Shown: piece by piece, positions 887 through 54,089 of the stretch
How the letters are laid out: every line of letters starts with the position of its first letter
Numbering within the stretch: the stretch's first letter is position 1
Assembly (NCBI GenBank): GCA_028817775.1
Contig: JAPPOW010000230.1
Location: forward strand, 1-57,221
Source: Candidatus Melainabacteria bacterium
Lineage (GTDB): Bacteria; Cyanobacteriota; Vampirovibrionia; LMEP-6097
Length of the DNA stretch: 57,221 bases
Direction: 5' to 3'
Notes under the pieces: model-generated
Told to the model about the DNA's origin: nothing
The model's database searches: none
What the model saw: the letters and a program-made list of their open reading frames with translations, nothing else
Translations under genes and position numbers: made by a program

Positions 887-1285
887 ATGATTCAAGGAAG
901 AAGAAGCTTGCAGCCTTTGAGCAAGCCTATTACTAGAGAGAGTCTCCGAAGCGACCCACAAACTGCGCGAGCAATGGACGAATCAGATCTCCGCTTGAAA
1001 GCCGGTGAGGGGAATCTTCGTATGGATGAAAATGGTGACTGGGTTGAAAACCGTGCTGATGATGGCACACCGGTACGTGTTCTCAAGCAGCGCTACGAAC
1101 AGAAAACAGGACCTCTCTCAGACCCTCCATTGATTGCTTACGTACCAAAAGCTTTAATCTTGGGGCTTGCATCAGTAGTTGGTCTTCCTTTGCTGGTGAA
1201 TGGCTGCGAGGAAGAAGCAGCTGAAACTACTGAACCCGTTAAGGCATTGCATCTAGCTGAAGCTACTACTGAACCTTCGAACTAA
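887..1285 (+). CDS. Hypothetical small protein with one predicted TM helix
   Basis: ORF only. Charged N-half, hydrophobic stretch ALILGLASVVGLPLLV, acidic tail. No family recognised. The 3' end overlaps the convergent 1266..2771 gene by 20 nt. Confidence 0.4.
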   Translation: MIQGRRSLQPLSKPITRESLRSDPQTARAMDESDLRLKAGEGNLRMDENGDWVENRADDGTPVRVLKQRYEQKTGPLSDPPLIAYVPKALILGLASVVGLPLLVNGCEEEAAETTEPVKALHLAEATTEPSN

Positions 1286-2778: not shown

Positions 2779-3492
2779 TCAGTCTATCAGGATATTGGCC
2801 TCTTGCAAATCACCAATTAGCTTCTCTAGGGCCGAAAGCTCGATTTTTAGGCCAAAATGGGCACAAAAACTTTGATGAATTTCTTCTAATCCTTTGCCTG
2901 AGCCTATGGCCTCGATGACAAATAAGGTGGTATTGGACAGAACGAAGCTGCGGTTCTTGAGACTTTCATGATCACGATAGAAGAACACAATCTCGCTTTC
3001 TTCCTCAATATCAGTCTGGCGCAGACTTTCAATATCATCCTCTGTTGTTTTGAGATATTCAATGACTTGTGTTACAGGGTATGAGAACTTCTCAATTTTA
3101 TGAACCGGAGTTAATTTAGAACTTGCTGCTAGATCAGGACTATTGTGGATTAAAACCTCTGTCCACTCATAACGGGCTAGATCACTTAGGAAATTAGGAA
3201 AGTTCTCAGCAAGATCTTCTTCTGAAAGTAATTTATAGAAATCAGCAGCCAGTCTATTGTAGATTGCTGATTTGCTCGGGTAATTATTTTGATAGTGTCG
3301 CATCAAATCATCCCAATCTTCGCCAATAATCTTGCGGCTCAAGGGATAGATGTTCTGCATCAACGAACTAAGGCTACTGACTACCAGTGAGTAATAAACG
3401 CTCAGTTCGCTCTTGGTTTGTTCTGGCAGCTCAGTCGGCTGACCCAGCATAAATTTTTGAATCTCTTGTTGTAGTTGATAGACTTGGTTCAT
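2779..3492 (-). CDS. DUF2063-family partner protein of the MNIO enzyme (HvfC/BufC/MbnC-like role)
   Basis: N-terminal pattern LSVYYSLVVSSLSSLMQNIYPLSRKIIGEDWDDLMRHYQNNYPSKSAIYNRLAADFYKLL...LSDLARYEWTEV matches the DUF2063 signature (vYrnn..l..aL...yP....G..w..l...Y....PS...l...g..F..fL....dlA..Ew). Start taken at ATG 3492 (MNQVYQ), 5 nt after the MNIO stop. The ORF-track ATG at 3522 lies inside a family-A repeat. Confidence 0.75.
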   Translation of the reverse strand: MNQVYQLQQEIQKFMLGQPTELPEQTKSELSVYYSLVVSSLSSLMQNIYPLSRKIIGEDWDDLMRHYQNNYPSKSAIYNRLAADFYKLLSEEDLAENFPNFLSDLARYEWTEVLIHNSPDLAASSKLTPVHKIEKFSYPVTQVIEYLKTTEDDIESLRQTDIEEESEIVFFYRDHESLKNRSFVLSNTTLFVIEAIGSGKGLEEIHQSFCAHFGLKIELSALEKLIGDLQEANILID

Positions 3493-3497
3493 GATTT

Positions 3498-4409
3498 TTA
3501 TACCTGGATTGCCGCGTCGCATGCGCTCCTCGCAACGACGCCTTGTATTTGTTTTAATTCTTCGACTAATTCTTTAAGCTCAGGGAAATTAGAATCGCGC
3601 TCAAGCAAGATAGCATTGACTTCAGTTCTTGCAAGTAGTTGCCGCAAAATTTCATAAACTTCATCGATGATTCCTTCACCATGAGTATCTAGGATTTCAA
3701 TTTTGTGACCGGTGTGAGAGTGGTAACCATTGAGGTGACCAGCTATATGTACTTGCACAACCCGTTCTAGCATTAGTGAATCAAGAAACTCTACTGGCTG
3801 GTAATTGCCATGATTAGTGGCGTTGACATAGATATTATTGACGTCAAGCAACATACCACAATCTGCCTGCTCCAAAATTGAATTGATAAACTGAGCTTCA
3901 CTCATTTCTGCATCGATAATCGTTGAATAGAAACTTGGATTCTCAACTAAAAATGGAAGTTGGAATTCATCTTGTAAAAATTTAACGTTATCGGCAATGA
4001 TATCCACTGACTCCTGAATCATTGGCACTGGAATTAGGTTCTGTAAGTAGTATTCACCAACACGAGTGCAGGAAATATGGTCAGAGAACCAAGGTGCTTC
4101 GATTTGCTGGAATAGTTCTTTGCAGCCATCAATCAGGTAAGGATCAAAACAGGGCTTACCGGGAGTCTCGGGCGCTGTGCCTATACTAAGATTCACGCCA
4201 TGAGGAATCAATGCTACGCCACTATCAAGTACTTCTTGAAACTGCTGGGCTTTGCGTCCGCCTAAGTAGATATAGTTTTCTGGAACGATTTCTAACCATT
4301 CGATGAGACCGGTATTATTCTCACTGCTATAAAAATCTAAAGTTTCTTGAGTTAGAGCTCGGCGTAATCCTAATCCTAGACCTGCCTTGCTTAGTTTGTT
4401 TTTGTCCAT
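3498..4409 (-). CDS. DUF692 / MNIO (multinuclear non-heme iron oxidative) enzyme
   Basis: GLGLRR...IEWLEIVPENY...IPHGVNLSIG...WFSDHIS...LPFLVENPSFY...LLDVNNIYVNATNHG...VQVHIAGH is the TIM-barrel DUF692 pattern (MbnB/TglH/HvfB/BufB family). Start ATG 4409 has AGGA 8 nt upstream. The alternative ATG at 4418 sits inside a family-A repeat. Confidence 0.85.
   Translation of the reverse strand: MDKNKLSKAGLGLGLRRALTQETLDFYSSENNTGLIEWLEIVPENYIYLGGRKAQQFQEVLDSGVALIPHGVNLSIGTAPETPGKPCFDPYLIDGCKELFQQIEAPWFSDHISCTRVGEYYLQNLIPVPMIQESVDIIADNVKFLQDEFQLPFLVENPSFYSTIIDAEMSEAQFINSILEQADCGMLLDVNNIYVNATNHGNYQPVEFLDSLMLERVVQVHIAGHLNGYHSHTGHKIEILDTHGEGIIDEVYEILRQLLARTEVNAILLERDSNFPELKELVEELKQIQGVVARSACDAAIQV
3506..3539 (-). 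repeat. Family-A hairpin element, TTGC/GCAA stem variant (copy A10), forming the last ~12 codons of the MNIO gene
   Basis: Minus-strand read GTC-GTTGC-GAGGAGCGCATGCGACGCG-GCAAT-CC has the same architecture as the other family-A copies. It is translated as ...GVVARSACDAAIQ. Confidence 0.7.
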
Positions 4410-4413
4410 CACT

Positions 4414-4495
4414 GTCATCCTGAGCTGCGTAGCAGCGTCAGGATCCCATTATCGCACACAGGAGATCCTGACGTCACTTCGTTCCTCAGGATGAC
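4414..4495. repeat. Inverted dimer of family-A hairpin elements (A1 4414-4447 forward, A2 4461-4495 reverse)
   Basis: GTCATCCTGAGCTGCGTAGCAGCGTCAGGATCCC, a 13-nt spacer, then GGAGATCCTGACGTCACTTCGTTCCTCAGGATGAC. The same tail-to-tail dimer layout recurs at 52597-52693. Confidence 0.85.
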
Positions 4496-4497
4496 AT

Positions 4498-6183: not shown

Positions 6184-6771
6184 TTATATTATACCTTTGG
6201 TACTACGGATTTCATTAGCAATCCGAGCATCAACTGTCTTGGCTTTGTCAAAAGCCAATGCAAAAGCTTTGAAACTCGCTTCAATAATATGGTGTGAATT
6301 AGCGCCAGAGATTTTGTGGAAGTGAATCACCATACCGGTGTTGTTAACTAGTGCACGCCAGAACTCAATACAGAGCTCGGTCTCAAAAGTATTGATGCGC
6401 TCCTTATCAACTGGCACATCGTAAACCAAATAAGGTCTAGTACCAAGATCAATATCACAACTAACTAGTGCTTCGTCCATCACTACTCGGGCTGAAGCGT
6501 AGCGGCGGATACCCTTGCGTTCACCCAATGCTTCTTTGATAGCTTGTCCAATGACTATACCAGTATCTTCGACACTGTGATGGTCATCGATTTCATGATC
6601 GCCTTTGGTTTGGACACTTAAATCTATAAATGAATGCCTGCGGAATTGCTCAAGCATATGATCAAAAAATGGCACGCCAGTATTGATATCACCTTGGCCA
6701 GAGCCATCTAGGTTGATTTCAACAGAGACTGAGGTTTCTTTGCTGTCGCGGTTAATACTTGCTTTGCGCAT
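6184..6771 (-). CDS. hisB: Imidazoleglycerol-phosphate dehydratase
   Basis: RETKETxV-like start (RDSKETSVSVEINLDG), GVPFFDHMLEQ, DDHHSVEDTGIVIGQA, SGANSHHIIEASFKAFA: full-length IGPD pattern. Confidence 0.93.
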   Translation of the reverse strand: MRKASINRDSKETSVSVEINLDGSGQGDINTGVPFFDHMLEQFRRHSFIDLSVQTKGDHEIDDHHSVEDTGIVIGQAIKEALGERKGIRRYASARVVMDEALVSCDIDLGTRPYLVYDVPVDKERINTFETELCIEFWRALVNNTGMVIHFHKISGANSHHIIEASFKAFALAFDKAKTVDARIANEIRSTKGII

Positions 6772-6808
6772 AAGTTTATTATTCCCAGATGGAAAAGTAT
6801 AGCAATTT

Positions 6809-14978: not shown

Positions 14979-15054
14979 GGGCCCGTAGCTTAGTTGGTAG
15001 AGCGCGTCGTTTGCACCGACGAGGTCGAAAGTTCGAATCTTTTCGGGTCCACCA
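14979..15054 (+). tRNA. tRNA-Ala (anticodon UGC), CCA encoded
   Basis: Manual cloverleaf: acceptor GGGCCCG/CGGGTCC with the G3:U70 alanine identity pair, D-arm GCTT-AGTTGGTA-GAGC, anticodon arm CGTCG-TTTGCAC-CGACG, T-arm GAAAG-TTCGAAT-CTTTT, discriminator A, then CCA. 76 nt. Confidence 0.93.
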
Positions 15055-16437: not shown

Positions 16438-16460
16438 TATAGTCTGAACTTAGAACAAAT

Positions 16461-17045
16461 ATGAGCTTTAGGAATATAGGCAATGTCGCTATCCTAGGTT
16501 TGGCTGCTCTTGCAGCAGGCGATAGCCCTGAGCAGGTCCCGCAGCCAGCAAGGCAAGATCAAGTAGTTGTCTCTGAAGAGAGAATTTTAGAACTACTTGT
16601 CAAGGCTCAGGCAATTATAGATAGAAGGATAGAACAGAAGCCAATTCAAACTGATGATCTATTGCTTGTTTTTGGACAGCTTTATCAACGTGGTTGTAGG
16701 GATACAGAAGATTTATGCCAGGCTTATTCAATTGCAGAGGAGCTCATATCAGAATTCAATAAGCTAGATAAACAAGAACAAGTCGAGCTCTTGCGTTTTG
16801 TAAATATGAACTTGGATTCTGATCGGCTTTATAGTGAAGAAAAACAATATTTGCAGGAGCACATTTTAGCTTTGATAAATGAGCTAGATCATGGAACAAA
16901 ACTTGAGTTAGATGATTTTATGTTTCTTGCTAGTTTAAGACCCAAAGCTTCAAGCCCGCTTTTGGCAGCTCTACAGGTTTATTTTGGACCAAGCCCAATC
17001 TTGAATAGAAGATTTTTGTTAGCAAGCTTGCATGCTGCAAACTAG
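16461..17045 (+). CDS. Hypothetical protein
   Basis: ORF only. Possible signal peptide (NVAILGLAALAAG). No family recognised. Confidence 0.45.
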   Translation: MSFRNIGNVAILGLAALAAGDSPEQVPQPARQDQVVVSEERILELLVKAQAIIDRRIEQKPIQTDDLLLVFGQLYQRGCRDTEDLCQAYSIAEELISEFNKLDKQEQVELLRFVNMNLDSDRLYSEEKQYLQEHILALINELDHGTKLELDDFMFLASLRPKASSPLLAALQVYFGPSPILNRRFLLASLHAAN

Positions 17046-17189
17046 GTACTGTTCACAAAGTTTGAGAATAAGGCTTGCGAGTATGAAAAAGTATTTAAAT
17101 TAAAGATTTTACTTCGTACACCCGAAGTTTGCTTGTAGCAAATGAGGGCGAGCGTAACGCAGTTATCGGGCTTTGTGAACAGTACCTAG
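17042..17189 (+). repeat. Family-B structured repeat (copy B1, 148 bp) with perfect 19-bp outer inverted repeats
   Basis: CTAGGTACTGTTCACAAAG ... CTTTGTGAACAGTACCTAG enclose the core AAGGCTTGCGAG...CCCGAAGTT-TGCTtgtAGCA-AATGAGGGCGAGCGTAACGCAGTTATCGGG, which is shared with five other loci. Confidence 0.85.
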
Positions 17190-18599
17190 TTATTTAAGAG
17201 AAACTGTTTTGATATAGTCACCAACCAGTTCTCTATTCCAATAGGCACCCGTTTCTTTGCGCTCTTGAGGACTAGTGAAAGTGTAGAGATAGTATTTAGC
17301 TCTAATAAATTTAGGAGCTTGCTCTGGGAAGGGATTATATTTGAGTAGTTTGAGAACATCCTGATTAGCCTGCAGTAATTTTTCTATTAGTGGGATAAAC
17401 CAATGACTTTGCTGTTCTCTGCCAAATGCAGCAAACCACATCAACCAATCAAGTCTCAGGTGATAAGGCGCGTACTGAGCAGGCATTGCTTTGGGGTCTC
17501 CTGGTTTGCCCTTGAACTGGTATTCTTGCCAAGTTTTTTGATCATTACTTCCTTCAATGACAATCTCAAAACGTTTTTTGGTAACTGAACCAAAAGCACC
17601 ATAAGTGTTGACAAGATGCAGCGGATCAAAACTAGCGTTCATTTTTTGTCCTGGTGAAATCATGTTCATGATTGGTTTATAGCTAAGTACTAAGATTAGC
17701 AGCGAAATAATTAAACTAGTCATTTGATAACTAGTTGGGCTTATAAGGCTGGCTGGAATTTCAATTGGAATTAATCTACGCAAGAAATTATTAGAGAGCC
17801 CAGAGACTGCAAGTAAAATAGCTGACCAATTTAACCAAGAAAAATTTCCACTAAGTACTAGCCAGGATTGGGAGCCAATGATTAAGCTAGCTGCAATTGT
17901 TGGTAGCGGCTGTGGCAGAAATAAGCCCCAGGGTACTATCAATTGAAAGAAATGATTACCAGCAACTTCGCAGCGGTGTATCCAAGTTGGTAGGTTGTGA
18001 AAGTGCCAGGAGAGTGGGTTTGGCATCGGTTGGGTTTCATGGTGATAATCTAGGCAAGTGAGATCTCGCCAGCATTCGTCGCCGCGCATTTTGATTAAGC
18101 CAGCACCAAATTCTAATTTGAATAAAATCAATCTCAGTAAGAATATAATTACTATAGGCACTAGAGTTTTGCTGGAACCAAGAAAGATAGCAAGAAAACC
18201 AATCTCAAGTAATAATGATTCCCAACCAAAACCATAGAAAGTTTGTCCAACATTCATTATTGAAAGATAGAGTAGCCAGGGGATAAACCAGATCAGGGCT
18301 GAGCCCCACCAGGGCAATTTGTCTGCTAGACCTAAGACAAGGGCAATTGAAACAATGAGTCCAATCCAGCTGATTAGGGCAAAGAAGCTATCGGAATAAT
18401 GGAAGTGAAAAATACTAGGAGCTTGCCAAAATTTGACATAAGTCAAAAATCTAGGTACCGGTAGTAGTCCATTGCTGCCAATCAAGCCCTTGAATTGATT
18501 GATTGTAACCAAAAATCCAATAGAGTAGATTAGTGCAAGTCCTCTCTGGATGACTAATCTAGCTAGGTAAAATTCTTCTGTGAATAACCAGGCTGGCAT
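17190..18599 (-). CDS. Lipase-maturation-factor (LMF1)-family polytopic membrane protein
   Basis: Many TM helices. FYGFGWESLLLEIGFLAIF resembles the LMF signature W(D/E)xLLLExGFLA. Conserved C-terminal soluble part (YHLRLDWLMWF). Confidence 0.6.
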   Translation of the reverse strand: MPAWLFTEEFYLARLVIQRGLALIYSIGFLVTINQFKGLIGSNGLLPVPRFLTYVKFWQAPSIFHFHYSDSFFALISWIGLIVSIALVLGLADKLPWWGSALIWFIPWLLYLSIMNVGQTFYGFGWESLLLEIGFLAIFLGSSKTLVPIVIIFLLRLILFKLEFGAGLIKMRGDECWRDLTCLDYHHETQPMPNPLSWHFHNLPTWIHRCEVAGNHFFQLIVPWGLFLPQPLPTIAASLIIGSQSWLVLSGNFSWLNWSAILLAVSGLSNNFLRRLIPIEIPASLISPTSYQMTSLIISLLILVLSYKPIMNMISPGQKMNASFDPLHLVNTYGAFGSVTKKRFEIVIEGSNDQKTWQEYQFKGKPGDPKAMPAQYAPYHLRLDWLMWFAAFGREQQSHWFIPLIEKLLQANQDVLKLLKYNPFPEQAPKFIRAKYYLYTFTSPQERKETGAYWNRELVGDYIKTVSLK

Positions 18600-18617
18600 A
18601 CTTTATAATTATAGACC

Positions 18618-19568
18618 TTGTCTCAGCATTACTACAGCCTCAAAGATTACCTTGCCAAGCGCTTTGGCGGCAGAGTGCAGCGTGTCACTTTAGAAGGTGG
18701 ATTTACTTGTCCCAATATTGATGGTTCTAAATCTGTAGGAGGTTGTACTTTCTGTACTGATGATGGCTCATCATCGGGCGCGCAGAATGCAGCGCATACT
18801 ATTAGGCAACAAATGAAAGAAGGGATAGTTAAGCAGTCCAAACGTTTTGATTGTGAGCAATTCATTGCTTACTTTCAGTCCTTCACTAATACTTATGCTG
18901 ACGTGGATTATTTGAGGACACTCTATGATCAAGCGGTGGATCATCCACAAGTCAAGGTGCTTGCAATTGGTACTAGACCAGATTGTGTGCCTGAAGAAGT
19001 GATTGATTTATTTGAGGAGTACACCGCAAGAGGTCTTGAACTTTGGGTAGATATTGGTGTGCAGACTAGTCACAACTCTACATTAGAAAAAATCAATCGT
19101 GCACATAGTTGGGAAGATTTTACCGATGCCGCCCAGAGACTTGCTCGCCGTAATAATCCATTACTAAGAATTTGTACTCATGTGATTATTGGTTTACCTG
19201 GTGAGACCCCAGAAATGATTATAGAGACTGCTGATAAACTAGCAGCTAGTCCAATCCATGATATTAAAATTCATCAGCTCTGTGTTTTCAAGGGCACACC
19301 GATGGAGATTGATTACCTCAATGGTGAATTAGAAATTTATAAAACTGCAGAGGATTATATTCCAATCTTGGCTGAATTTATTTCTCGCTTGCGCCCTGAT
19401 ATTGCCATCCAGAGAGTGATGGGAGAGGGCAAAGTAGGTGAGATGGTAGTACCAGCCTGGGCTGACCACGGCATGAAGAACAAGTTTCTTGATAAGTTTT
19501 ATAACTACCTAGAAGAAAATCAAATTCAACAAGGTTCTAACCTAAAAAGCCACCAGGTATATTCGTAA
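18618..19568 (+). CDS. Radical SAM protein, TIGR01212/YhcC-like family
   Basis: GGFTCPNIDGSKSVGGCTFC is the atypical cluster motif of this family. N-terminus Y..L.DYL..RFGGRVQRV and the downstream TIM-barrel pattern fit. TTG start. Confidence 0.75.
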   Translation: MSQHYYSLKDYLAKRFGGRVQRVTLEGGFTCPNIDGSKSVGGCTFCTDDGSSSGAQNAAHTIRQQMKEGIVKQSKRFDCEQFIAYFQSFTNTYADVDYLRTLYDQAVDHPQVKVLAIGTRPDCVPEEVIDLFEEYTARGLELWVDIGVQTSHNSTLEKINRAHSWEDFTDAAQRLARRNNPLLRICTHVIIGLPGETPEMIIETADKLAASPIHDIKIHQLCVFKGTPMEIDYLNGELEIYKTAEDYIPILAEFISRLRPDIAIQRVMGEGKVGEMVVPAWADHGMKNKFLDKFYNYLEENQIQQGSNLKSHQVYS

Positions 19569-20307
19569 CAATATCTGGGAATTGGAAATGATACTGCTCT
19601 TCAAATTTCTTGAGCAAAGGCTCTAGCCTCGGGTAATTTGGTTTACCATCACCTTTGTAACCCGCTATAAGAATGGCATGTAGTAGTTTGATAGGGTGCT
19701 TGATCCTCTCAAAAATATCTTGGTCTAAACTATAATCAACGGAGGTGGCGAACTCCAATAGAGCAGCCTCTTCTGCAAAGCGGTCATCTCCTAGACTTGA
19801 TTCTTGTTCAATAGCATCTAAGACTTTGTCTGCAGCGATCCTGCGACCAGTGAGTAGAGCATAGATTTGTGCAAGGAAATGCTGTTGCATGTCATCTTCT
19901 TCTATATCATGTGGTTGGAATCTATCGAGTAATTGACGTAGCAGTGGAGCTTTGGTCTCAAAGCTTTGAAAGCTAGTCTTGATTAGTTTGATATCGTCTG
20001 GTGATTGGCGAGCAATAAATGCTCCAATGTCCTTATTGTCCTGCTGCAAGCCAGAGAGCTTGGGCGAGGTGAACTGGGTTAACAGGGCTCGCGCTCGTTT
20101 GAGACATTGTCTGGAATCAATACTTGTGAGAATGTCCTCATAACGATCTAGTTGAGCTTTGTGCAAATCTGCCAAGTCTGAACGTTCTAGCTTTGGTTCG
20201 ATCAGGTCGCGCCGTCTCTCCTCCGGTATTAAATGGTGGACTTCGCGTTGCCATTCCTCTAGGGCAGCCAGTCTGTTAACGAGTTTTGTTAAAACGTGGG
20301 TATTCAA
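19537..20307 (-). CDS. Hypothetical protein
   Basis: ORF only. Helical and charged, no signal peptide. No family recognised. Overlaps the convergent radical SAM gene end by 32 nt. Confidence 0.45.
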   Translation of the reverse strand: MNTHVLTKLVNRLAALEEWQREVHHLIPEERRRDLIEPKLERSDLADLHKAQLDRYEDILTSIDSRQCLKRARALLTQFTSPKLSGLQQDNKDIGAFIARQSPDDIKLIKTSFQSFETKAPLLRQLLDRFQPHDIEEDDMQQHFLAQIYALLTGRRIAADKVLDAIEQESSLGDDRFAEEAALLEFATSVDYSLDQDIFERIKHPIKLLHAILIAGYKGDGKPNYPRLEPLLKKFEEQYHFQFPDIVTNIPGGFLG

Positions 20308-20373
20308 TCTCTTAACTCCTTTGTTAATAATAAGTGAAAGCTTAAGCGATTATAGAGGGGCTGAAAATAAAAG

Positions 20374-21360
20374 TCAAGCTGATTTTGGACCAGACCACAT
20401 TTTTTTGCGGCTGCTGATCTCAATCATCTGATCAATAGTGTCTTTGGCGGGTTCTAGCATTGTATCTGGAATTGTGATCTCAGTGAATTCTTGATCGAGA
20501 GCTTGGTAGAGGTTCTCCAATGAATGGTATTTCATATTTGGACAAAGTGGTAGCGGGAATACAGTAAGGATCTCCTTGTCGCGGAAATCAGCTTGCATGC
20601 GGGCAACCAAACCTTGCTCAGAGAGAATGATAAATTTCTTACCAGCAGATTCTTCAACGAATTTATATATCTGAGAAGTGCTGCCGACAAAATCAGCTCG
20701 GCGCCAAACTTCTGGATCACACTCAGGGTGAGCAATAATGATTGCTTCTGGATGTACTATGCGCTGACGATCAACTTCCTCTGCTGTAATCTGCCAGTGG
20801 GTTGGACAGAAGCCATCGTAGATATGAATTTTTTTCTCAGGTACTTTGTATTGAACCCAAGCGCCGAGACCCTTGTCTGGGACAAAGATTACTTCTTCAC
20901 TATCTAGCGAACGTACTATGTCGACTGCGTTAGTTGAAGTGCAGCAGATATCAGACTCTGCCTTGATTGCAGCAGAGCTATTGACATAGCAAACTACTGG
21001 CGCGCCTGGATGTTCAGCTTTGAATTTGCGCAGGTCTTCAATGTTGATCATGTCTGCCATGGGGCAGCCAGATTGGATATCTGGTAGTAGAACTTTTTTC
21101 TCTGGGCTAAGTAGTTTGGCAGTTTCTGCCATAAAGTGCACACCACAGAAGACGATAATATCAGCGTCAGTTTCCTGAGCTTGTTTTGAGAGCATCAACG
21201 AGTCTCCCACGAAGTCTGCTACTCGCTGGACTTCTAGTCTTTGGTAAATATGGGTTAGTATGACGGCGTTTTTGGTCTTGGCTAGATCTTTGATTTTGGC
21301 AAAGAGCTCAAGTTTTTCGGCGGTTCTGTCTACAACCGATTGTGCCATTAAGGTTGACAT
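20374..21360 (-). CDS. nadA: Quinolinate synthase
   Basis: ILTHIYQ, DFVGDSL, FCGVHFMAETAK, SGCPMADM, VCYVNSSA, CCTSTNA, FVPDKGLG, HPEC, ILSEQGL: full NadA pattern. Confidence 0.93.
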   Translation of the reverse strand: MSTLMAQSVVDRTAEKLELFAKIKDLAKTKNAVILTHIYQRLEVQRVADFVGDSLMLSKQAQETDADIIVFCGVHFMAETAKLLSPEKKVLLPDIQSGCPMADMINIEDLRKFKAEHPGAPVVCYVNSSAAIKAESDICCTSTNAVDIVRSLDSEEVIFVPDKGLGAWVQYKVPEKKIHIYDGFCPTHWQITAEEVDRQRIVHPEAIIIAHPECDPEVWRRADFVGSTSQIYKFVEESAGKKFIILSEQGLVARMQADFRDKEILTVFPLPLCPNMKYHSLENLYQALDQEFTEITIPDTMLEPAKDTIDQMIEISSRKKMWSGPKSA

Positions 21361-21380
21361 GACGGATTATTATAGCAATT

Positions 21381-21477
21381 TTAGCCACCCATGCCTTAAC
21401 CTTTACCATTTTTCAGGATAATTGCATAGTTTGGAATTATCTCAAAAAGTGGTAAAGGTTAAGGCATGGGTGGCTAA
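21381..21477. repeat. 97-bp palindromic element (28-bp perfect outer stem plus inner hairpin), 20 bp upstream of nadA
   Basis: TTAGCCACCCATGCCTTAACCTTTACCA (21381-21408) is the exact reverse complement of 21450-21477. The loop holds an inner hairpin (GATAATT...AATTATC). Single copy in this window. Confidence 0.8.
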
Positions 21478-21549
21478 ACGTTAAGTAAATATATAATCGA
21501 GGCCTGGCAAGAGGCTCTTTGCTAGAATTATCTCCCTCGAGGTCAAATT

Positions 21550-21732
21550 ATGGCAGTACCAAAGAAAAATCATTCGCACCAAAGACAGCACAAAAGAAGA
21601 GCTAATTGGAAAGGCAAATTAGTAGAAGTAACTAATTGTTCTAATTGTGGTGCCCTCAAAAGACCTCACCACGTTTGCGGCGAGTGTGGATTTTATAACG
21701 GTCGCAAATTCAAAGACACTGACGCAGAATAG
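21550..21732 (+). CDS. rpmF: 50S ribosomal protein L32
   Basis: MAVPKKNHSHQRQHKRRANWK...CSNCGALKRPHHVCGECGFYNGR: typical L32 with a zinc-ribbon Cys pair. Confidence 0.93.
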   Translation: MAVPKKNHSHQRQHKRRANWKGKLVEVTNCSNCGALKRPHHVCGECGFYNGRKFKDTDAE

Positions 21733-21841
21733 CTCTAAAATAACCCAATAGCTTTGTTCTGTGAGTCCTCATTGGCTTCAGCCAACTTCGGACACGCCCT
21801 TTGGGCTTCACATGCCTCGCTCTTGGGCATTTTAGAACTAT
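21728..21841 (-). repeat. Family-B structured repeat (B2, reverse orientation) directly after rpmF
   Basis: Reverse complement reads ...CAAGAGCGAGGCATGTGAAGCCCAAAGGGCGTGTCCGAAGTTGGCTGAAGCCAATGAGGACTCACAGAACAAAGCTATTGGG. Copy-specific outer stem AATAGCTCTAAAAT / ATTTTAGAACTATT (1 mismatch). Confidence 0.8.
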
Positions 21842-21860
21842 TCTATAATCACAACAGTCA

Positions 21861-22778
21861 GTGCTCCGCTATATCTCTCTAAAATTAATATCAATTTGTT
21901 TGACCTTGTTTCTCTTGGTCTCTGCTAGTTTTTTTATGCTGCGCACTTTGCCTGGTAGCCCCTTTGAAGAAGGTAAGCGACTCTCACCAGAAATAATTCT
22001 CAAACTAGAAAAAAAATATGGGCTCGATAAGCCATTATTAGAGCAGTACCAATCCTATATTACTGGCTTAGTTAGGCGTGGCGATCTTGGTCCTAGCCTC
22101 AAGTATCCCAACCGTGATGTCGGTGATATTCTAGCTGACGCAATTCCAGTTTCATTAGGTTTGGGTTTGATTGCTTTGATACTGGCTCTGGTTTTGGGAA
22201 TGACTTTGGGCATCACTGCAGCACTCAAGCCAGATCACTGGCTCTCCAATTTTGCTTATTTGTTTTCAAGTCTGGGGATGTCGATTCCTGGATTTGTCTT
22301 TGCAGCAATTTTGATTAGTATCTTTGCACTCAAACTTAAATTACTGCCAGTTGCTTTACTTGAAGGACCTGAGTATTTCATTTTGCCTGCTTGCACCCTT
22401 GCTATTGCGCCAAGCTCTTATATCGCACGAATCACTCGCTCCTCAATGCTTGAAACTCTTGGGCGCGAGCATATCAAAACCGCTCTAGCCAAGGGGCTTA
22501 GTTACTACGATATTGTTTTGAAACATGGTTTGTGGAATGCATTGCTGCCGATAATTACAGTGCTTGGTCCAATTGCTGCAATTTTGGTTACCGGTTCATT
22601 TGTAGTTGAGTATATATTTGCCCTGCCTGGCATGGGTAAGTATTTTGTCACAGCATTTACTAACCGGGATTATTTTTTAGTTTCTGGGGTGATAATAGTA
22701 TTTGCTGTGATCTTACTGCTGATCAATACTTTGGTAGATTTAGTTATTAAAATTATTGATCCGAAATCGTCATCCTGA
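21861..22778 (+). CDS. ABC transporter permease, oligopeptide/dipeptide (OppB/DppB) type
   Basis: N-terminus MLRYISLKL...LPGSPFE, six TM segments and an EAA-like loop (SSMLETLGREHIKTALAKGLS). GTG start. The stop codon TGA lies inside a family-A repeat. Confidence 0.85.
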   Translation: MLRYISLKLISICLTLFLLVSASFFMLRTLPGSPFEEGKRLSPEIILKLEKKYGLDKPLLEQYQSYITGLVRRGDLGPSLKYPNRDVGDILADAIPVSLGLGLIALILALVLGMTLGITAALKPDHWLSNFAYLFSSLGMSIPGFVFAAILISIFALKLKLLPVALLEGPEYFILPACTLAIAPSSYIARITRSSMLETLGREHIKTALAKGLSYYDIVLKHGLWNALLPIITVLGPIAAILVTGSFVVEYIFALPGMGKYFVTAFTNRDYFLVSGVIIVFAVILLLINTLVDLVIKIIDPKSSS

Positions 22779-22820
22779 TCCTGGCGCGTTCGCTCAGGAC
22801 AGGCTTCCTCTGGATGACAG
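22769..22820 (+). repeat. Family-A-related hairpin (A5), extended/degenerate
   Basis: CGTCATCCTGA-TCCTGGCGCGTTCGC-TCAGGAC, then ...TCTGGATGAC pairs back to GTCATCC(T/A)GA. Confidence 0.6.
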
Positions 22821-22824
22821 TGGG

Positions 22825-23355
22825 TTACCTTCTACGAAGAAAACTTGAAGAACCGAGTGAGCCACCACGACGGTTACCTGTTGCACTATTAGAACCTAGA
22901 CCACTATTACGTCTGCTGGCACCAAAGAAGCTTCTTGAGCCAAGTGCACCATTGCGTCCACCTCTTCTGGCACTAGTTGAACCTAAACTGCCATTGCGTC
23001 CGCCTCTTCTTGCGCTACTTGAACCCAAGCCAGCATTGCGTCTTGAAAGTCCAGAGGAGCCAAGACTATTACGGCTATCATTACGATGAGTTAAGTTGGT
23101 GAGACTGTTACGAGTGTCGTTGCGATGAGTCAGGGTGGTGAGACTATTGCGTGTATCGTTGCGGTGTGTGAGTGTAGTTAAACTGTTACGAGTATCATTT
23201 TTAGATCTGATTCTACTGAGATTATTGCGCAATGCGCCTGCTCTATTGGAGAGACTTGATCTGCGAGAGCCAGAAGCGTAGCTATTACGGCTGCGTCCAC
23301 GACTACTAGAGCCGATGCCTTCATTATTGCTTCCACGTATTCCTCTTGCGACCAT
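22825..23355 (-). CDS. Arg/Ser/Gly/Asn-rich repetitive (RGG-like) hypothetical protein
   Basis: 176-aa ORF with NDTRNSLTTLTHR x3 and GSLGSTSARRGGRNG x2. No clear SD. The mirror plus-strand ORF is also open, so coding status is uncertain. Confidence 0.4.
   Translation of the reverse strand: MVARGIRGSNNEGIGSSSRGRSRNSYASGSRRSSLSNRAGALRNNLSRIRSKNDTRNSLTTLTHRNDTRNSLTTLTHRNDTRNSLTNLTHRNDSRNSLGSSGLSRRNAGLGSSSARRGGRNGSLGSTSARRGGRNGALGSRSFFGASRRNSGLGSNSATGNRRGGSLGSSSFLRRR
22949..23195. repeat. Two adjacent imperfect tandem-repeat arrays (42 bp x2-3 at 22949-23050; 39 bp x3 at 23079-23195) inside the RGG-like ORF
   Basis: Read directly. Units CCATTGCGTCC(A/G)CCTCTTCT... and CGTTGCG(A/G)TG(A/T)GT...GAGACT(A/G)TT(G/A)CG(T/A)GT(A/G)T. 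Confidence 0.75.
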
Positions 23356-23401
23356 TAATTGAATTGAAACATGGCTAAGTTAAGACTAGGTAAAGAAACT
23401 T

Positions 23402-23520
23402 AGATTTATTACGAAAGACACAAGAGCAAGGCTTGCGAGCCCCGAAGGGGTTTAGTCGAAGTTTATTTACATAAATGAGACCTCGCGTAACGCAGCTATT
23501 GGGTTTTTCGTGATGAATCT
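23402..23520 (+). repeat. Family-B structured repeat (B3)
   Basis: ...CAAGAGCAAGGCTTGCGAGCCCCGAAGGGGTTTAGTCGAAGTTTATTTACATAAATGAGACCTCGCGTAACGCAGCTATTGGG... with imperfect outer stem AGATTTATTACGAAAGA / TTTTTCGTGATGAATCT. Confidence 0.8.
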
Positions 23521-23537
23521 TGTTATATAATTAGCTT

Positions 23538-23978
23538 ATGAACCCCAAATTTGCCCCAAAAGTCATGGCTTATTTACTCATTTTGCGCTGGACTTTATCG
23601 CTTATTTTCTTTGTTATGGGGGCACCAAAACTCTTCGATGCTAATTTTGGGGCAAGTGCAGATATTTACTTCGCTAGTTTGCGTGACGATATCATTCTTT
23701 CGCCTTATACCGGCTTCTTTAATAAGGTAGTGATTCCTAATGCTTTCATCTTTGCAAGTTTAGTGAAGTATGCAGAGCTTGCAATCGCTGGAGCCTTTTT
23801 TATTGGATTCCCTATGCGCTTAGCTGTTTTTGCAGCGACTTTCTTGCATATCAATTATATTTGCATTGCTAGTTTCCCGAGCTTACTTTATTTGAATGTT
23901 CTAATGATAGTTTGTGAATGGGTTTGCCTTGCTGCAGTGGAAGCGTCAGTGAATAATACTACTCCAGTTGCCAAATGA
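23538..23978 (+). CDS. DoxX-like small integral membrane protein
   Basis: Four hydrophobic segments. LRWTLSLIFFVMGAPKL and YAELAIAGAFFIGFPMRLA resemble the DoxX pattern. The stop overlaps the next gene's ATG (ATGA). Confidence 0.4.
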   Translation: MNPKFAPKVMAYLLILRWTLSLIFFVMGAPKLFDANFGASADIYFASLRDDIILSPYTGFFNKVVIPNAFIFASLVKYAELAIAGAFFIGFPMRLAVFAATFLHINYICIASFPSLLYLNVLMIVCEWVCLAAVEASVNNTTPVAK

Positions 23979-25696
23979 GGTTCTTTAGTCTTTTAGTCTT
24001 GCTCTGTGCATTGAGTGCTTGCTCAAGCCCCAAGCTAGATGCTTCGAAACCTGGTGGGGTATTGCGTCGTACCCATCTTGGTTCTGATCCCAAAACTTTA
24101 AACCCTTGGATTTCTGCTGATGCTGCAAGTTCAAGGTTTGCTTCTCTGCTTTATTTAGGTTTGGTGAGAACTGATCCAGATACTGATGAAGTAATGCCTT
24201 ATATGGCTGAGAGCTTTGAGCTTCGCAAGGGTGGTAAGTTGATTTTGGTCAAAATGCGTGAAGATCTAGAGTGGACTGATGGTGAACCAATTGATGCAGA
24301 AGATGTTGAGTATACCTGGAATACTTTGATCCGGGATGAAGTTGCACAAAGTTCGACCAAGGATATTCTTACTGTTGATGGTGAGTTTCCGCAAGTAACT
24401 TTGCTTGATAAATTTAATTTGCGTTTTGAAACCAAAGAAGTTTTTGCGCCGTTTTTGCGGAGTTTGAGTACTGCAATTGCACCAAAGCATGATGTAGAGC
24501 GCTTCTTAACAGAGAGTGGAGCCAAGACTCTGGAGGAGAAACAAAAAGCCTTCAATTCATATTTGAGTATCCAAACTAAGCCAGATGAGATTGTTAGTTC
24601 AGGACCATTTAAGCTCGATAAAATTATTCGTGGTGAGCGGATTGAAGTCAAACGCAATCCTAAGTTCTTTATTTTTGATGAGCAAGGACAGCGTCTACCT
24701 TATCTCGACAAGATAGTTTATTCCTATGTGCGTGATAGTACCGCCGATACTTTTAAGTTTCTAGCTGACGAAGCTTATATTCTAAGTGTCACTGCTCAAA
24801 ACAGTGCTTTGATTAAAACTCTAGAAGAGAAATATGATTTCTCTTTGCATGATGCTGGTCCCACTACTGGTACTAACTTTATTTGGTTCAATATGAGCAA
24901 GCATGTGCCTGAACCAAAATATTCTTGGTTTAATGATGAAAATTTCCGTAAGGCAATTTCTTATGCTATTGACCGGGAGAATATCGTTAACAACGTCTTT
25001 CAAGGTCTAGGAGCGCCTTTGTTCACTGCTGAATCTCTCAAGTCCCCATTTTTAAATGAAGAACTTGCTGATGGTCACCCGCGTGATATGGCTAAAGCCA
25101 AAAAATTATTAGAGGCTTCTGGTTTTAGTTTTCATACTAATAAAGATAGTGATGAACTTGAGTTGCATGATAAGCATGGCAACCGAGTTGAATTTAATTT
25201 ATTCACCAATGCTGGTAATCAAGAACGAGAATTTATTTCAGTTATCGTTATTAGCAATTTGCGTGAGCTTGGTATGAAAGTAAATTTCAAACTCTTGGAG
25301 TTTAATAATTTTGTTTCTCGTTTGATGTCGGGTAAGGATTATGAAGCTGGCATTATTGGGCTGACCGGTGGCAATGAACCAAATAGCGGCGCAAATGTTT
25401 GGCGCAGCGACGGGCGCTTGCATATGTTTGATGTTAAAGCCGGACAAGAGGGAGCTGTCACTCGTGATTGGGAGCGAGAACTCGATTCTTTATTTAGTAA
25501 GGCTGTGCAGACTATGGATTTTAAGGAGCGTAAGGTCTTCTATGATAGATTTCAGGAGATAATTTATGAGCACAATCCGATGATTTATATCGCCTCTCCA
25601 AAGCAATTAAGTGCTATCAAGCATAAGATTGCTGGTATCCGAAAGACCAAATATGGCGGTATGATGCCATATTTATATAAAGTGTATATCAAATAA
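23975..25696 (+). CDS. ABC transporter substrate-binding lipoprotein, family 5 (OppA/DppA-like)
   Basis: Lipobox LLCALSAC|S. Size and pattern (LDPW..., LVRTDPDT.EV.P.MAES, W.DGEP..A.DV.YTW) typical of SBP_bac_5. Confidence 0.8.
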   Translation: MRFFSLLVLLCALSACSSPKLDASKPGGVLRRTHLGSDPKTLNPWISADAASSRFASLLYLGLVRTDPDTDEVMPYMAESFELRKGGKLILVKMREDLEWTDGEPIDAEDVEYTWNTLIRDEVAQSSTKDILTVDGEFPQVTLLDKFNLRFETKEVFAPFLRSLSTAIAPKHDVERFLTESGAKTLEEKQKAFNSYLSIQTKPDEIVSSGPFKLDKIIRGERIEVKRNPKFFIFDEQGQRLPYLDKIVYSYVRDSTADTFKFLADEAYILSVTAQNSALIKTLEEKYDFSLHDAGPTTGTNFIWFNMSKHVPEPKYSWFNDENFRKAISYAIDRENIVNNVFQGLGAPLFTAESLKSPFLNEELADGHPRDMAKAKKLLEASGFSFHTNKDSDELELHDKHGNRVEFNLFTNAGNQEREFISVIVISNLRELGMKVNFKLLEFNNFVSRLMSGKDYEAGIIGLTGGNEPNSGANVWRSDGRLHMFDVKAGQEGAVTRDWERELDSLFSKAVQTMDFKERKVFYDRFQEIIYEHNPMIYIASPKQLSAIKHKIAGIRKTKYGGMMPYLYKVYIK

Positions 25697-25729
25697 CAAG
25701 GTAATATCACCTAAATGTGCTAAAATGTA

Positions 25730-26497
25730 TTGACGAATATGGTCTTAGGATTCAACTTCAGTGCTGGCGAAGCAGTACGAAGCGCGGTTGATGCATTTCG
25801 TAATGAGGCCCTGGCAAAAATACCCGGATATAGTTCGATGGCTACTCTCTACCGTCGGGTTAAAGCACGGCAGGGTATGGAAGGACCTAAACATGCTGGC
25901 AATACTGTAGATGAGAGTGAGTTTAATAGTGCTAGAAGAAAAATTGAATCGGAGATTGGGGGTAGCCTCAATCCATTTAAGTGGATGTGGAATGCAGTGC
26001 AAACTGTCATTGGTAATACCAAGAGTGAGCGTATTGCAACAGCAGTTAGGAATTTTGAATCTTATTCGCACCAGTATGAGGCTTATAAATTTGCACACAA
26101 GGCACAAAAATTCTTACTGACGGAATTAGAACGGCGGGTCAGCAATATTGAAAGCTATGGATCTAAATTTGTTGGTACCAAGAATAAACATGTTGCCAGT
26201 GATCCGGTGCTTAGTTCACTCAAATCAGCAATTAAATCTTGGCTGGAACCGTTCAATCGAATTGCCCATGGTGAAGTGAAGGAGGTTGGCAAGCTCACTG
26301 AGTCTGATCTCAAGTTCTTGATGAATATTCGCGATCGAATTCGTTATAGCTCCAAAGCTAGATACCTAGAGGATTTGTTGCCTGAATATGAAACTACAAT
26401 TCAAGCAGCAAGACAATCAGTTTATAGTACTAAACCAGCTCTTAATCAAGGACAACGCCAAGTTGGGGAGCACTTAGCTAAACAAATGGGGGTCTAA
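25730..26497 (+). CDS. Hypothetical protein
   Basis: ORF only. Start uncertain (TTG 25730 or ATG 25739). Helical, no signal peptide. Confidence 0.45.
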   Translation: MTNMVLGFNFSAGEAVRSAVDAFRNEALAKIPGYSSMATLYRRVKARQGMEGPKHAGNTVDESEFNSARRKIESEIGGSLNPFKWMWNAVQTVIGNTKSERIATAVRNFESYSHQYEAYKFAHKAQKFLLTELERRVSNIESYGSKFVGTKNKHVASDPVLSSLKSAIKSWLEPFNRIAHGEVKEVGKLTESDLKFLMNIRDRIRYSSKARYLEDLLPEYETTIQAARQSVYSTKPALNQGQRQVGEHLAKQMGV

Positions 26498-26859
26498 CAG
26501 CTTTTGTCTAAGAGCTTAGTAAGCTCACGCTCAAGCTCTTGATAGCTTAGCTGAGTCTCAGCAGTCAAAGATTTCTTAGGACCAATCACTACTAAGCCAT
26601 GAGCTTTAAGAGCTTCACCATGCTCTAATCTGTAGAGACGATAGATCTCACGTAATTGCCTACGTAGACGATTACGCTTTACTGCTGACTTGGAATAATT
26701 CTTGGAGATGGCAAAACCTACATAAGGTAGCTTGTCTTGATGAGTTTCTCTAGTTTTAGTGAAATTGAGTTTAAGATTAGCAGAATATAAGGACTTGCCC
26801 TTTTGGTAAGCCTGCTTAAAAAGACCAGAGTATTTTAGTCTTTCATCTCGTCCTAACAT
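26494..26859 (-). CDS. rnpA: Ribonuclease P protein component
   Basis: MLGRDERLKYSGLFKQ...FAISKNYSKSAVKRNRLRRQLREIYR: RnpA RNR motif. Located downstream of rpmH. The ORF-track N-terminal extension runs toward repeat B4. Confidence 0.88.
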   Translation of the reverse strand: MLGRDERLKYSGLFKQAYQKGKSLYSANLKLNFTKTRETHQDKLPYVGFAISKNYSKSAVKRNRLRRQLREIYRLYRLEHGEALKAHGLVVIGPKKSLTAETQLSYQELERELTKLLDKSC

Positions 26860-26872
26860 AATGATAATTATA

Positions 26873-27000
26873 ACCTTTCTGTAGGGCACAAGAACGAGGC
26901 ATGCGAGCTAAGAAAACAGCAGGTTTTCTTAGTTTACCCGAAGTTTATTTCCATAAATGAGGGCGAGCATAACAAAGTTATTGGGCTCTACAGAAAGGTT
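26873..27000 (+). repeat. Family-B structured repeat (B4) filling the rpmH-rnpA intergenic space
   Basis: AACCTTTCTGTAGGGC...CAAGAACGAGGCATGCGAGCTAAGAAAACAGCAGGTTTTCTTAGTTTACCCGAAGTTTATTTCCATAAATGAGGGCGAGCATAACAAAGTTATTGGG...GCTCTACAGAAAGGTT. Confidence 0.8.
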
Positions 27001-27133
27001 ATAGGCTGATTTTTTTGCGTCCGCGTGCACGTCTGCGTGCAAGAACTTTACGGCCGCCAGGGCTGGCCATTCTGGCACGAAAACCACTGGTTCTTTTGCG
27101 TTTTCTTTGCGATCCACGTAAAGTCATTTTCAT
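26999..27133 (-). CDS. rpmH: 50S ribosomal protein L34
   Basis: [44 protein letters not shown]: canonical L34. Start at ATG 27133, not the ORF-track 27181. Confidence 0.93.
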
Positions 27134-52531: not shown

Positions 52532-52596
52532 AGTAACTATATAAAGTTTGGCTGGAGCGCCATTGATTGCAAATTACTTAATCGGTTCTTAACGTT

Positions 52597-52693: not shown

Positions 52694-52705
52694 AGCCATG
52701 CTAAA

Positions 52706-54082: not shown

Positions 54083-54089
54083 TTTTAGA

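Follow-up and report, generated by a model that had tools for sequence, protein, structure and literature searches.

Family B, a structured palindromic repeat resembling miniature inverted-repeat transposable elements, in a Melainabacteria lineage

Does a short repeat with a conserved core and variable but paired ends serve its host as a structured RNA, or is it a mobile element, and which part of it moves? The question is raised by six copies of a repeat, here called family B, in a 57,221-nucleotide stretch of DNA from Candidatus Melainabacteria bacterium (GenBank assembly GCA_028817775.1, contig JAPPOW010000230.1, positions 1 to 57,221; hereafter the window). A first-pass annotation made from the letters of the window had offered two explanations, a structured RNA family or an element that inserts into pre-existing hairpin loops. 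Palindromic repeats such as REP, ERIC, RPE and Correia are widespread, and how most of them move and what is selected in them remains unclear. Melainabacteria are the non-photosynthetic sisters of cyanobacteria, and our literature search found no repeat family described for them. Here we report that family B is a mobile element and not a conserved host RNA. [quoted passage not shown]

Fold, covariation and strand bias

All six copies described in the first-pass annotation were recovered. The two-block signature CGAAGTT-N8-16-AATGAG has six matches in the window compared to 0.02 expected, and a covariance model trained on 26 non-redundant family B copies hit exactly the same six, with 79-105 bits on the sense strand and at most 19 bits on the antisense strand; weaker hits of the model in the window fell on unrelated long hairpins. 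Folding of each copy against dinucleotide shuffles gave z scores of -4.9 to -8.5. The places of the copies stood as first drawn, while the boundaries of B1, B2, B4 and B6 were refined (Table 1). The element is ~115-165 nt long, and its intergenic copies contain no conserved open reading frame (ORF) with a start codon.

The same architecture recurs in all copies. An outer stem of ~15-30 bp leads to helix P1b (CAAGAGC/GCTATTG), which carries a central purine-purine mismatch, then through an internal, asymmetric loop whose conserved bases are RAGGCW (5' side) and TAACRMA (3' side) to P2 (TGCGAG/CTCGCA), whose two central pairs are G.A/A.G in many copies, and finally to a three-way junction. The junction bears two arms, one being hairpin P3 and the other consisting of P4 (3 bp), a conserved GAA/GA loop and P5. 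A kink-turn or hammerhead assignment for the GAA/GA loop was rejected on inspection, since the register fits neither. The conserved blocks had been described as single-stranded, which holds only for RAGGCW, GAA, GA and TAACRMA; several of the others are helix strands. CAAGARC pairs with GYTATTG (P1b), TGYGAR pairs with YTCRCA (P2), P4 takes in the C that begins CGAAGTT together with the final G of AATGAG, and GTT/AAT close P5. The small hairpin first seen between CGAAGTT and AATGAG is P5, with at least five stem sequences in the larger set and not three, and the variable hairpin upstream is P3, which ranges from absent to ~15 bp and not from 3-4 to 10 bp. Most copies have a P3 stem of 3-6 bp, usually with a C-GNA-G triloop: 17 of 21 short P3 hairpins end in triloops, 12 of them C-GNA-G, with all four bases occurring at N.

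The proposed covariation held in the larger alignment. Across 26 copies, 90.6% of cells form standard pairs, compared to 32-42% with partners slid by 1-3 columns, and 25 of 34 paired columns have changed on both sides; none of 500 shuffles matched the observed values. P1b occurs as CAAGAGC/GCTATTG, CAAGAAC/GTTATTG and CGAGAAC/GTTATCG, and further as CAAAATC/GATATTG, CATATGC/GCAGATG and CATCTAC/GTAGATG. Mean pairwise identity is 92% for the ~25 conserved unpaired junction bases, 68-77% for the internal helices, 50% for the P5 loop and 44% for the outer arms, which are still paired. This gradient, lowest at the termini, is the reverse of what is expected of a terminal-repeat element, and the earlier description of family B as unlike classical MITEs was fair in this respect. 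The first P5 pair is G.U in 26 of 26 aligned copies, and neither conserved junction block is an inverted copy of the other.

The two strands of the element are not equivalent. In the arms, G.U outnumbers A.C by 56 to 8 in one parse and by 57 to 10 in another; copy by copy, G.U exceeds A.C in 21 copies and A.C exceeds G.U in none. In 27 of 28 copies the reverse complement folds less stably than the sense strand, the mean difference being 11.5 kcal/mol. DNA parameters predict the same architecture (sense z -4.7 to -7.3), with the antisense strand weaker again. C-GNA-G motifs give exceptionally stable DNA mini-hairpins, and the P3 triloops may thus be a mild hint at single-stranded DNA (ssDNA). 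An internal promoter was rejected, as the best -35/-10 means were 7.6 and 7.8 in the two orientations of 28 copies compared to 7.9 in shuffled controls, and so was an intrinsic terminator, with no consistent T-run 3' of the stem. One copy has TTGAAA-N16-TATACT on its antisense strand.

Table 1. Coordinates of family B copies, their parts and the genes they touch (window positions unless a locus handle is given)
Feature	Position	Strand	Basis or detail
B1, complete element between two convergent genes	17040-17191	+	covariance model, fold, arms
B1 5' outer arm, partner 17169-17191	17040-17062	+	fold
B1 P1b 5' strand TGAGAAT, partner 17162-17168 (GTTATCG), central purine-purine mismatch	17063-17069	+	alignment
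B1 unpaired conserved J5', AAGGCT (consensus RAGGCW; 90% mean identity)	17070-17075	+	alignment
B1 P2 5' strand TGCGAG, partner 17149-17154 (CGAGCG), middle tandem G.A/A.G	17076-17081	+	alignment
B1 variable hairpin P3, expanded AT-rich form	17082-17120	+	fold
B1 P4 (CCC/GGG), conserved asymmetric GAA/GA loop and P5 (GTTTGC..GCAAAT); holds CGAAGTT and AATGAG	17121-17148	+	alignment
B1 unpaired conserved J3', TAACGCA (consensus TAACRMA; 88% mean identity)	17155-17161	+	alignment
B1 3' outer arm	17169-17191	+	fold
LMF1-like gene	17190-18599	-	ORF
rpmF (ribosomal protein L32, 60 aa), below the 80-aa ORF filter; stop codon inside B2 stem	21550-21732	+	ORF
rpmF 3' end (A GAA TAG), outermost 7 bp of B2 stem with 21838-21844 (CTATTCT)	21726-21732	+	MAG ortholog comparison
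B2, directly after rpmF stop codon; antisense to both neighbours (rpmF, ABC permease)	21726-21844	-	covariance model
B3, 18 nt upstream of DoxX-like gene start	23402-23520	+	covariance model, fold
B4, between rnpA start (minus strand) and trkH (plus strand); 10-bp P3	26869-27003	+	covariance model, fold
B5, intergenic, co-oriented within a minus-strand gene pair; arms homologous to MAG copy L008	33336-33467	-	covariance model, fold
B6 inside trpB (ORF 42021-43295), stem to stem; type II shell (CATATGC/GCAGATG), sense, in frame, apparently translated	42684-42804	+	covariance model, TrpB comparison
99 nt (33 codons) absent from other TrpB homologs	42696-42794	+	TrpB comparison
trpB codons CCA GAC TAT A (P D Y I), conserved host sequence	42795-42804	+	TrpB comparison
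TrpB with in-frame copy	window B6	+	33 extra codons; excision restores canonical spacing before the motif that begins PD-x-(I/V)
Transketolase N-terminal subunit with in-frame copy	L004	sense	Pfam match (Transketolase_N) halts at residue 224, the insert start
MurT ligase with in-frame copy	L005	sense	Pfam match begins at residue 92, past the insert
Membrane protein with in-frame copy	L008	sense	variant with different interior

Host lineage, mobility and copies inside genes

Among GTDB species representatives, matches to a degenerate pattern over the conserved core were almost confined to one metagenome-assembled genome (MAG), 'Candidatus Melainabacteria bacterium SI037S4_bin4' (11 matches on 9 contigs). 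The loci of this MAG hold at least 13 family B copies, the window holds 6 in 57 kb, and a metagenome collection added ~12 further distinct copies; outside the window, the MAG and metagenomes together gave ~22 distinct copies. Other phyla gave only a handful of single pattern matches, about the number expected by chance, with the rest of the element absent. Phage, plasmid or viral carriage was rejected, as viral contigs gave no pattern match and plasmids and phages no blastn match. Comparison with Rfam 15 likewise returned no known family: family B had no match at gathering score over the whole window, nor at E<=10 over 16900-27100, a region with four copies. The only gathering-score match in the window was a tRNA gene at 14979-15051 (+), and the sole weak hits over 16900-27100 were microRNA-precursor-like, on an unrelated hairpin at 21380-21478 that has 47-bp arms and a 5-nt loop and lies ~20 nt upstream of the NadA start.

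The window, itself part of a metagenome assembly, was assigned to the lineage of the MAG because it carries ordinary chromosomal genes, among them those for the flagellar rod and hook, because the best named relative of its TrpB is from Caenarcaniphilales, and because 7 kb of it (15.8-22.8 kb) is syntenic with MAG contig L009, with 87.5% amino acid identity in NadA. Family B is specific to a Melainabacteria lineage. It also breaks up this organism's metagenome assemblies; in sister samples, many contigs (L051-L058, L062, L064) end inside or beside a family B copy, and the covariance model can flag such assembly-breaking copies.

Comparison of orthologous loci showed that occupancy differs between the window and the MAG. 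B2 follows rpmF in the window, where the orthologous MAG site has 40 unrelated bases, and a MAG copy lies ~40 nt upstream of NadA, where the window instead holds the unrelated hairpin with 47-bp arms. Because a family B copy in one genome faces another hairpin in the other, the site before NadA appears to be a hotspot for palindromic insertions. A remnant after a glycosyltransferase gene in the MAG is absent from the window ortholog, and no family B copy is common to orthologous sites of the two syntenic genomes (window and MAG contig L009). TrpB relatives are without the insert seen in the window, and LMF1 relatives are without B1. A 2.2-kb indel separates window 16440-18615 from L009 3948-3978, the MAG being without a 194-aa gene, B1 and the LMF1-like gene. 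Three possible sources of an empty site were set aside: strain variants (8, 4 and 2 contigs with exact flanking proteins), which all contain the element or break there; LMF1 relatives, in which synteny is not conserved and which show only the natural stop codon and relatives without the element; and the trpB relatives P0002 and P0003, which are too diverged at the site. Orientation is mixed as well. Four copies in the window lie on the plus strand and two on the minus strand, and of the copies between two genes of like direction, 3 are sense and 6 antisense.

Four copies lie within ORFs, all of them sense, in frame and free of stop codons, in the genes for TrpB, the transketolase N-terminal subunit, MurT and a membrane protein. 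Judged from their reading frames, these copies appear to be translated as part of the host protein. Where the core is standard (three copies), its 3' half uses the same reading frame and gives the shared peptide PK[LF]xxxNEDx[HY]NxAD, while the L008 variant preserves only the peptide ends. A peptide search for more in-frame hosts gave no scoring match and is uninformative, the query being too short for the database size. All four copies have a type II shell (CAKATGC/GCAGATG), and the share within ORFs is 4 of 10 for type II copies versus 0 of 19 for type I copies (hypergeometric p ~0.009, from a hand count of 29 copies). Since orthologous sites are unshared, orientation is mixed and four copies are apparently translated in ORFs, family B is a mobile element and not a conserved host RNA.

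Two further observations concern these loci. At the exact B6 site, after the codons for ..REIY, trpB of P0002 (L047), the closest relative, has a 24-nt extra that folds as TTCTGA-tgt-TCAGAA, lengthened by five G.U pairs, and may be the remnant of an old insertion; P0003 trpB is 4 codons shorter there. A single MAG contig, L008, carries three features (6189-6368 (-), 6757-6806 and 6630-6750), namely a family B shell with a different ~100-nt interior, in frame in the membrane-protein ORF, a core-deleted family B remnant abutting the stop of the glycosyltransferase gene, and a large unrelated palindrome of GTAACG-containing units.

Arms, target sites and the route of movement

The outer inverted repeats were first said to differ in every copy. 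Within the window they do look unrelated; family-wide they are homologous and some are near-identical, with a consensus of about T-W-AG-RNCYTGTYTTGAAARKTT ahead of P1b. B5 resembles L008, L031+ and L033, B2 resembles L013, and B6 resembles L007:661. Arms of 15-30 bp pair in every complete copy. B1, for instance, has perfect 21-bp arms (17040-17060 / 17171-17191) and occupies the entire gap between its convergent neighbours, starting within the TAG stop of ORF 16461-17045 and ending within the TAA stop (17190-17192) of the LMF1-like gene, which retains its natural C-terminus. MAG copies L009, L015+ and L016 are 97-99% identical over arms and core in unrelated flanks, so that it is the entire hairpin that moves. 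The outer stems are part of the element; host coding sequence can enter no more than their outermost 7-9 bp, as in rpmF and trpB. An nhmmer arm profile run over ~190 kb (window and loci) recovered nothing beyond known copies, a shell whose interior differs and a remnant that has lost its core; no arm-only hairpin, half element or autonomous parent was among the hits. Insertion into pre-existing hairpin loops, in the form first proposed, is not supported, as the arms are homologous and travel with the core and no arm-only hairpins were found. Paired copies 30-70 nt apart are frequent; L015 1284-1383 (-) / 1439-1563 (+) and L031 826-926 (-) / 998-1089 (+) are head-to-head, and L007 528-630 (+) / 661-760 (+) is a tandem pair of a type I copy beside a type II copy.

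Junctions of the recent copies and of L034 have the form C-T-W-[AG..CT]-W-A-G with an identical W on both sides, reading CTTAG/CTTAG, CTAAG/CTAAG (L034) and ATAAG/CTAAG. They fit a putative T-W-A duplication at a CTWAG-like target. TAA/TTA (or CTWAG) repeats flank L009, L016 and L034, and TA or CTAG repeats are seen at B1 and B4; at other copies such repeats are absent or decayed, and near-palindromic tips confound the reading. A 9-bp target duplication in trpB (TGAGCYCAG) was dropped, since it follows from the internal palindrome CTGAGCTCAG and is not found in other copies. In 14 of 25 intergenic copies a convergent ORF has its stop codon at the extreme tip of the 3' arm, usually a TAG from the terminal ..CT and the adjoining A; a co-oriented ORF ends at the 5' tip in only 4-5 copies.

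In B2 and B6 the stem tip contains host sequence. The last codons of rpmF, identical in the element-free MAG ortholog, pair with CTATTCT on the opposite side of the B2 stem, and the trpB codons for P-D-Y-I, CAGACTATA (42796-42804), pair with TATAGTCTG (42684-42692), which lies in a variable stretch of trpB, to form the outermost 9 bp of the B6 stem. Because recent copies show no flank pairing of this kind, it probably arises after insertion. The simplest mechanism would be hairpin-templated (template-switch, quasi-palindrome) conversion of the unconstrained side, and such host-coding tips are a possible window on template-switch hairpin growth. The alternative is insertion beside tip-like targets, because the rpmF and trpB tips look like the canonical arm tip and lie where an arm of canonical length would end.

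Core and shell have independent histories. Between copies, core distances and shell distances show no correlation (Spearman r=0.02, Mantel p=0.39), cores of 95% identity occur in shells with differences at 59% of positions (B3/L030, L005a/L019), near-identical shells with different cores are also seen, and the exchange boundary falls exactly between P1b and the junction blocks. Concerted evolution of cores within a genome was not significant (0.256 vs 0.275, p=0.19). The mosaic could come either from gene conversion through the conserved blocks or from an independently mobile core, and we favour gene conversion because the arm search found no core-less shells. A refined version of the hairpin-loop explanation is kept alive by the host-sequence tips of B2 and B6 and by these separate histories.

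How might such an element move? Under recognition of a folded single strand, an enzyme with its gene elsewhere in the genome would copy or move the whole hairpin, namely ~20-bp arms, the closing P1b helix and the core with its three-way junction. Copies would land in intergenic DNA, typically at a stop codon and at T-W-A-(G)-like sites, and occasionally in genes, where only in-frame, stop-free, sense copies would survive, as translated inserts of ~33 or more residues. Selection would act on the fold of one strand and the ~25 unpaired junction bases and not on terminal sequence. Because fold and junction bases are kept and termini are free, we infer that the machinery recognises a folded single strand (ssDNA or RNA) and not duplex terminal repeats. 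After insertion, copies would exchange modules, with core and shell recombining, and the stem tip would come to pair with the host flank by the conversion described above. Of this account, the family and its fold, the covariation, the strand bias, mobility, the in-frame insertions and the mosaic are observed, whereas single-strand recognition, the enzyme class and the way stems grow into their flanks are proposed.

Several points weigh against this account. First, domain scans (and pre-computed Pfam for three) of the 53 window ORFs of at least 150 aa found no transposase, reverse transcriptase or HUH domain, and thus no mobilising gene. Second, IS200/IS605-type ssDNA transposition inserts in a strict orientation, and the presence of family B in both orientations seems unlike what replication-coupled ssDNA transposition would give. 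Third, the raw G.U and A.C counts are inflated because copies share ancestry; collapsed to distinct position/type events they are 21 vs 10 (p=0.07), and we treat the strand bias as real, though milder than the raw counts imply. Fourth, hairpin-templated mutation could yield some of the 'compensatory' changes without selection. Fifth, the TWA/CTWAG junctions come from 3-4 recent copies whose near-palindromic tips confound them, and no nucleotide-exact empty site was found among strain contigs, LMF1 relatives, trpB relatives or MAG synteny. Sixth, the bias of the 3' tip toward convergent stop codons does not follow from it. Lastly, TWA duplications would point to an IS5/PIF-Harbinger type of DDE transposase (PMC4482050), an enzyme that cuts duplex DNA and can act without a single-strand fold.

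Such a duplex-recognising DDE transposase, with an incidental fold, is the main rival, though we judge it unlikely. Family B would then be a classical MITE of an IS5/PIF-Harbinger-like or IS630-like enzyme, and the fold a by-product perhaps affecting transcripts only. Size, copy number, absence of coding capacity, paired termini and AT-rich intergenic sites fit published MITEs (PMC10969869), recent copies have T-W-A(-G) direct repeats at CTWAG-like junctions, and B1 and B4 are compatible with a TA duplication. TWA is the signature of PIF/Harbinger, which is related to bacterial IS5 (PMC4482050), and a window without a transposase is consistent with action in trans. However, termini at 44% identity against internal unpaired bases at 92% reverse the pattern of a terminal-repeat element, the junction blocks are not mutually inverted while P2-P5 covary, G.U exceeds A.C on one strand, and ~190 kb contains no autonomous partner or solo arm. 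Also rather unlikely, in our view, is a purely structure-recognised element whose core is a recombinase site or a new ribozyme, whose arms are sequence-free and whose stem is lengthened by inverted host copies; if true, structure-only mobility with a self-lengthening hairpin would be a mode undescribed for bacterial repeats.

It is improbable that family B is a structured RNA serving the host, either a cis element of mRNAs or a set of small RNA genes, spread by duplication and acting, for example, in mRNA stability or processing. The structural half of the first-pass suggestion of an RNA family is strongly supported by covariation, the conserved bases of the junction and G.U pairs on one strand; functional RNAs typically show conserved junctions with stems that covary and loops that vary freely, the copies lie at gene ends, and orientation-dependent RNA effects are known for ERIC and Correia (PMC10969869). 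Conservation as a host RNA, however, is contradicted by the mobile behaviour. No copy is kept at orthologous sites of two syntenic genomes, the ratio of 3 sense to 6 antisense means that many copies would be transcribed as the weaker antisense strand, neither orientation has a promoter-like signal above shuffles nor is there a consistent T-run, copies within ORFs appear to be translated, and Rfam has no match.

Highly doubtful is a two-layer element in which a ~66-90-nt core (RAGGC..AACRMAG) is mobile or exchangeable and enters the loops of older shells or host palindromes. The uncorrelated core and shell distances, with like cores in unlike shells and vice versa, would follow from it, as would the exchange boundary exactly at P1b/J and the L008 variant, in which shell and J blocks are kept and the interior is replaced; excising the 99 nt from trpB leaves a 9-bp hairpin at the site where P0002 has its hairpin-forming extra. 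Yet the window and loci contain no empty shells, recent copies travelled as arms plus core, gene conversion or template switching via the conserved J blocks accounts for the mosaic just as well, and the trpB and rpmF tips resemble canonical arm tips at the canonical arm length. A catalytic or protein-recruiting RNA core, such as a new self-cleaving ribozyme spread via an RNA intermediate like ribozyme-bearing retroelements, might explain the three-way junction, the ~25 invariant unpaired bases, the invariant G.U pair, the tandem G.A in place of Watson-Crick pairs in P2 and the multi-copy dispersal, but is very improbable given no Rfam ribozyme match at E<=10, no reverse transcriptase nearby, in-frame and stop-free copies in ORFs that would be translated and not removed from the mRNA, and C-GNA-G triloops that lean to DNA.

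The window contains other repeats and genes of note. A second, unrelated palindromic family with shared arms TGTCATCCTGAGG..CCTCAGGATGACA occurs at 4413-4496 and 52596-52694. Inverted repeats lie at 54086-54221 (36-bp arms, 64-nt centre) and 49720-49826 (24-bp arms), and 118-160 holds the perfect 21-bp palindrome TTGGCTTCCCGGGTACCCCAA. The protein encoded at 55341-56216 (-) has a Flavoprotein Pfam match over residues 6-268 on a 162-position profile, and that at 56208-57050 (+) an MlaD match over residues 63-200 on an 81-position profile; both may carry other in-frame insertions. Neighbouring genes for DUF2063 and MbnB/TglH/ChrH-family proteins at 2779-4418 (-) are a pair typical of a modification locus for ribosomally synthesized and post-translationally modified peptides (methanobactin-like).

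Comparison with known repeats

Measured against the definition of prokaryotic MITEs (PMC10969869), family B has the size (<~300 bp), no coding capacity, terminal inverted repeats, and multiple dispersed copies with presence/absence differences between genomes; an autonomous insertion sequence with matching ends was found neither in the window nor in the loci examined. Tourist-like MITEs (IS5/PIF-Harbinger) are small and non-coding, with terminal inverted repeats, T-W-A repeats and AT-rich near-palindromic targets (PMC4482050). Family B may resemble them in its junctions and in target choice, but its arms are highly divergent between subfamilies and the window contains no cognate transposase. 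REPIN/REP elements, associated with RAYT (HUH) transposases, are high-copy intergenic hairpins whose compensatory changes pointed to a single-stranded intermediate (PMC3116915). Family B is likewise a hairpin with compensatory changes and a probable single-strand stage. REPINs, however, have conserved terminal REPs and a free middle, whereas family B is the opposite, its conserved part being central; on inspection its tips (T-W-AG..) are without GTAG/CGTC heads, and the window contains no Y1-transposase domain or RAYT gene.

ERIC (or IRU) elements of enterobacteria and the YPAL-type of Yersinia are ~127-bp imperfect palindromes at gene ends in transcribed regions, and ERIC varies in size through insertions at set internal positions, is occasionally found within genes and affects mRNA in a way that depends on its orientation (PMC10969869). 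Family B is similar in size, position and internal size variants, with no sequence relation; ERIC forms one long imperfect hairpin, unlike the branched core and least-conserved termini of family B. Compensatory changes in such elements have been read as signs of RNA-level structure. Correia repeats (CREE/NEMIS) of Neisseria, which are short, have terminal inverted repeats and lie beside genes, give a transcribed hairpin that is a substrate of RNase III (PMC10969869). They differ in their conserved 26-bp termini with promoter and integration host factor sites, family B having no promoter-like signal.

Palindrome-associated elements derived from IS200/IS605 have no terminal inverted repeats, carry a separate subterminal hairpin at each end and insert in a strict orientation; family B is unlike them, with long complementary termini and four plus and two minus copies in the window. 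Integron attC sites share only strand-specific folding with it: attC sites are imperfect hairpins in cassette arrays, while family B has no attC-type R''/R' boxes (RYYYAAC / GTTRRRY) at its ends, and its copies are dispersed beside housekeeping genes. In Nostoc, from the sister phylum, Elhai et al. in 2008 reportedly described short modules within hairpins of longer MITE-like repeats, mutually replaceable and arranged as mosaics. Compared by description, those modules are 21-27 nt, whereas the family B core is 66-90 nt and itself structured.

Rickettsia palindromic elements (RPE) are ~100-150 bp long and occur both between genes and in frame within housekeeping genes, leaving the host protein intact (PMC10969869). 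Family B resembles RPE in its four in-frame copies with a conserved, apparently translated peptide, and would add, independently, a second case of palindromic inserts translated in frame within essential enzymes (TrpB, transketolase, MurT). It differs in belonging to another phylum, with no known sequence relationship (RPE being compared by description), in having ~4 of 29 copies within ORFs, and in its asymmetric three-way-junction core and core/shell mosaic. The signal in family B is unusually clean, with a branched fold, 25 covarying pairs, invariant junction bases, strand bias and free paired termini. What sets it apart is that a branched core of conserved sequence occurs together with free yet paired termini, strand-biased pairing and mosaic construction, and family B is a new structured variant of the MITE-like palindromic repeats.

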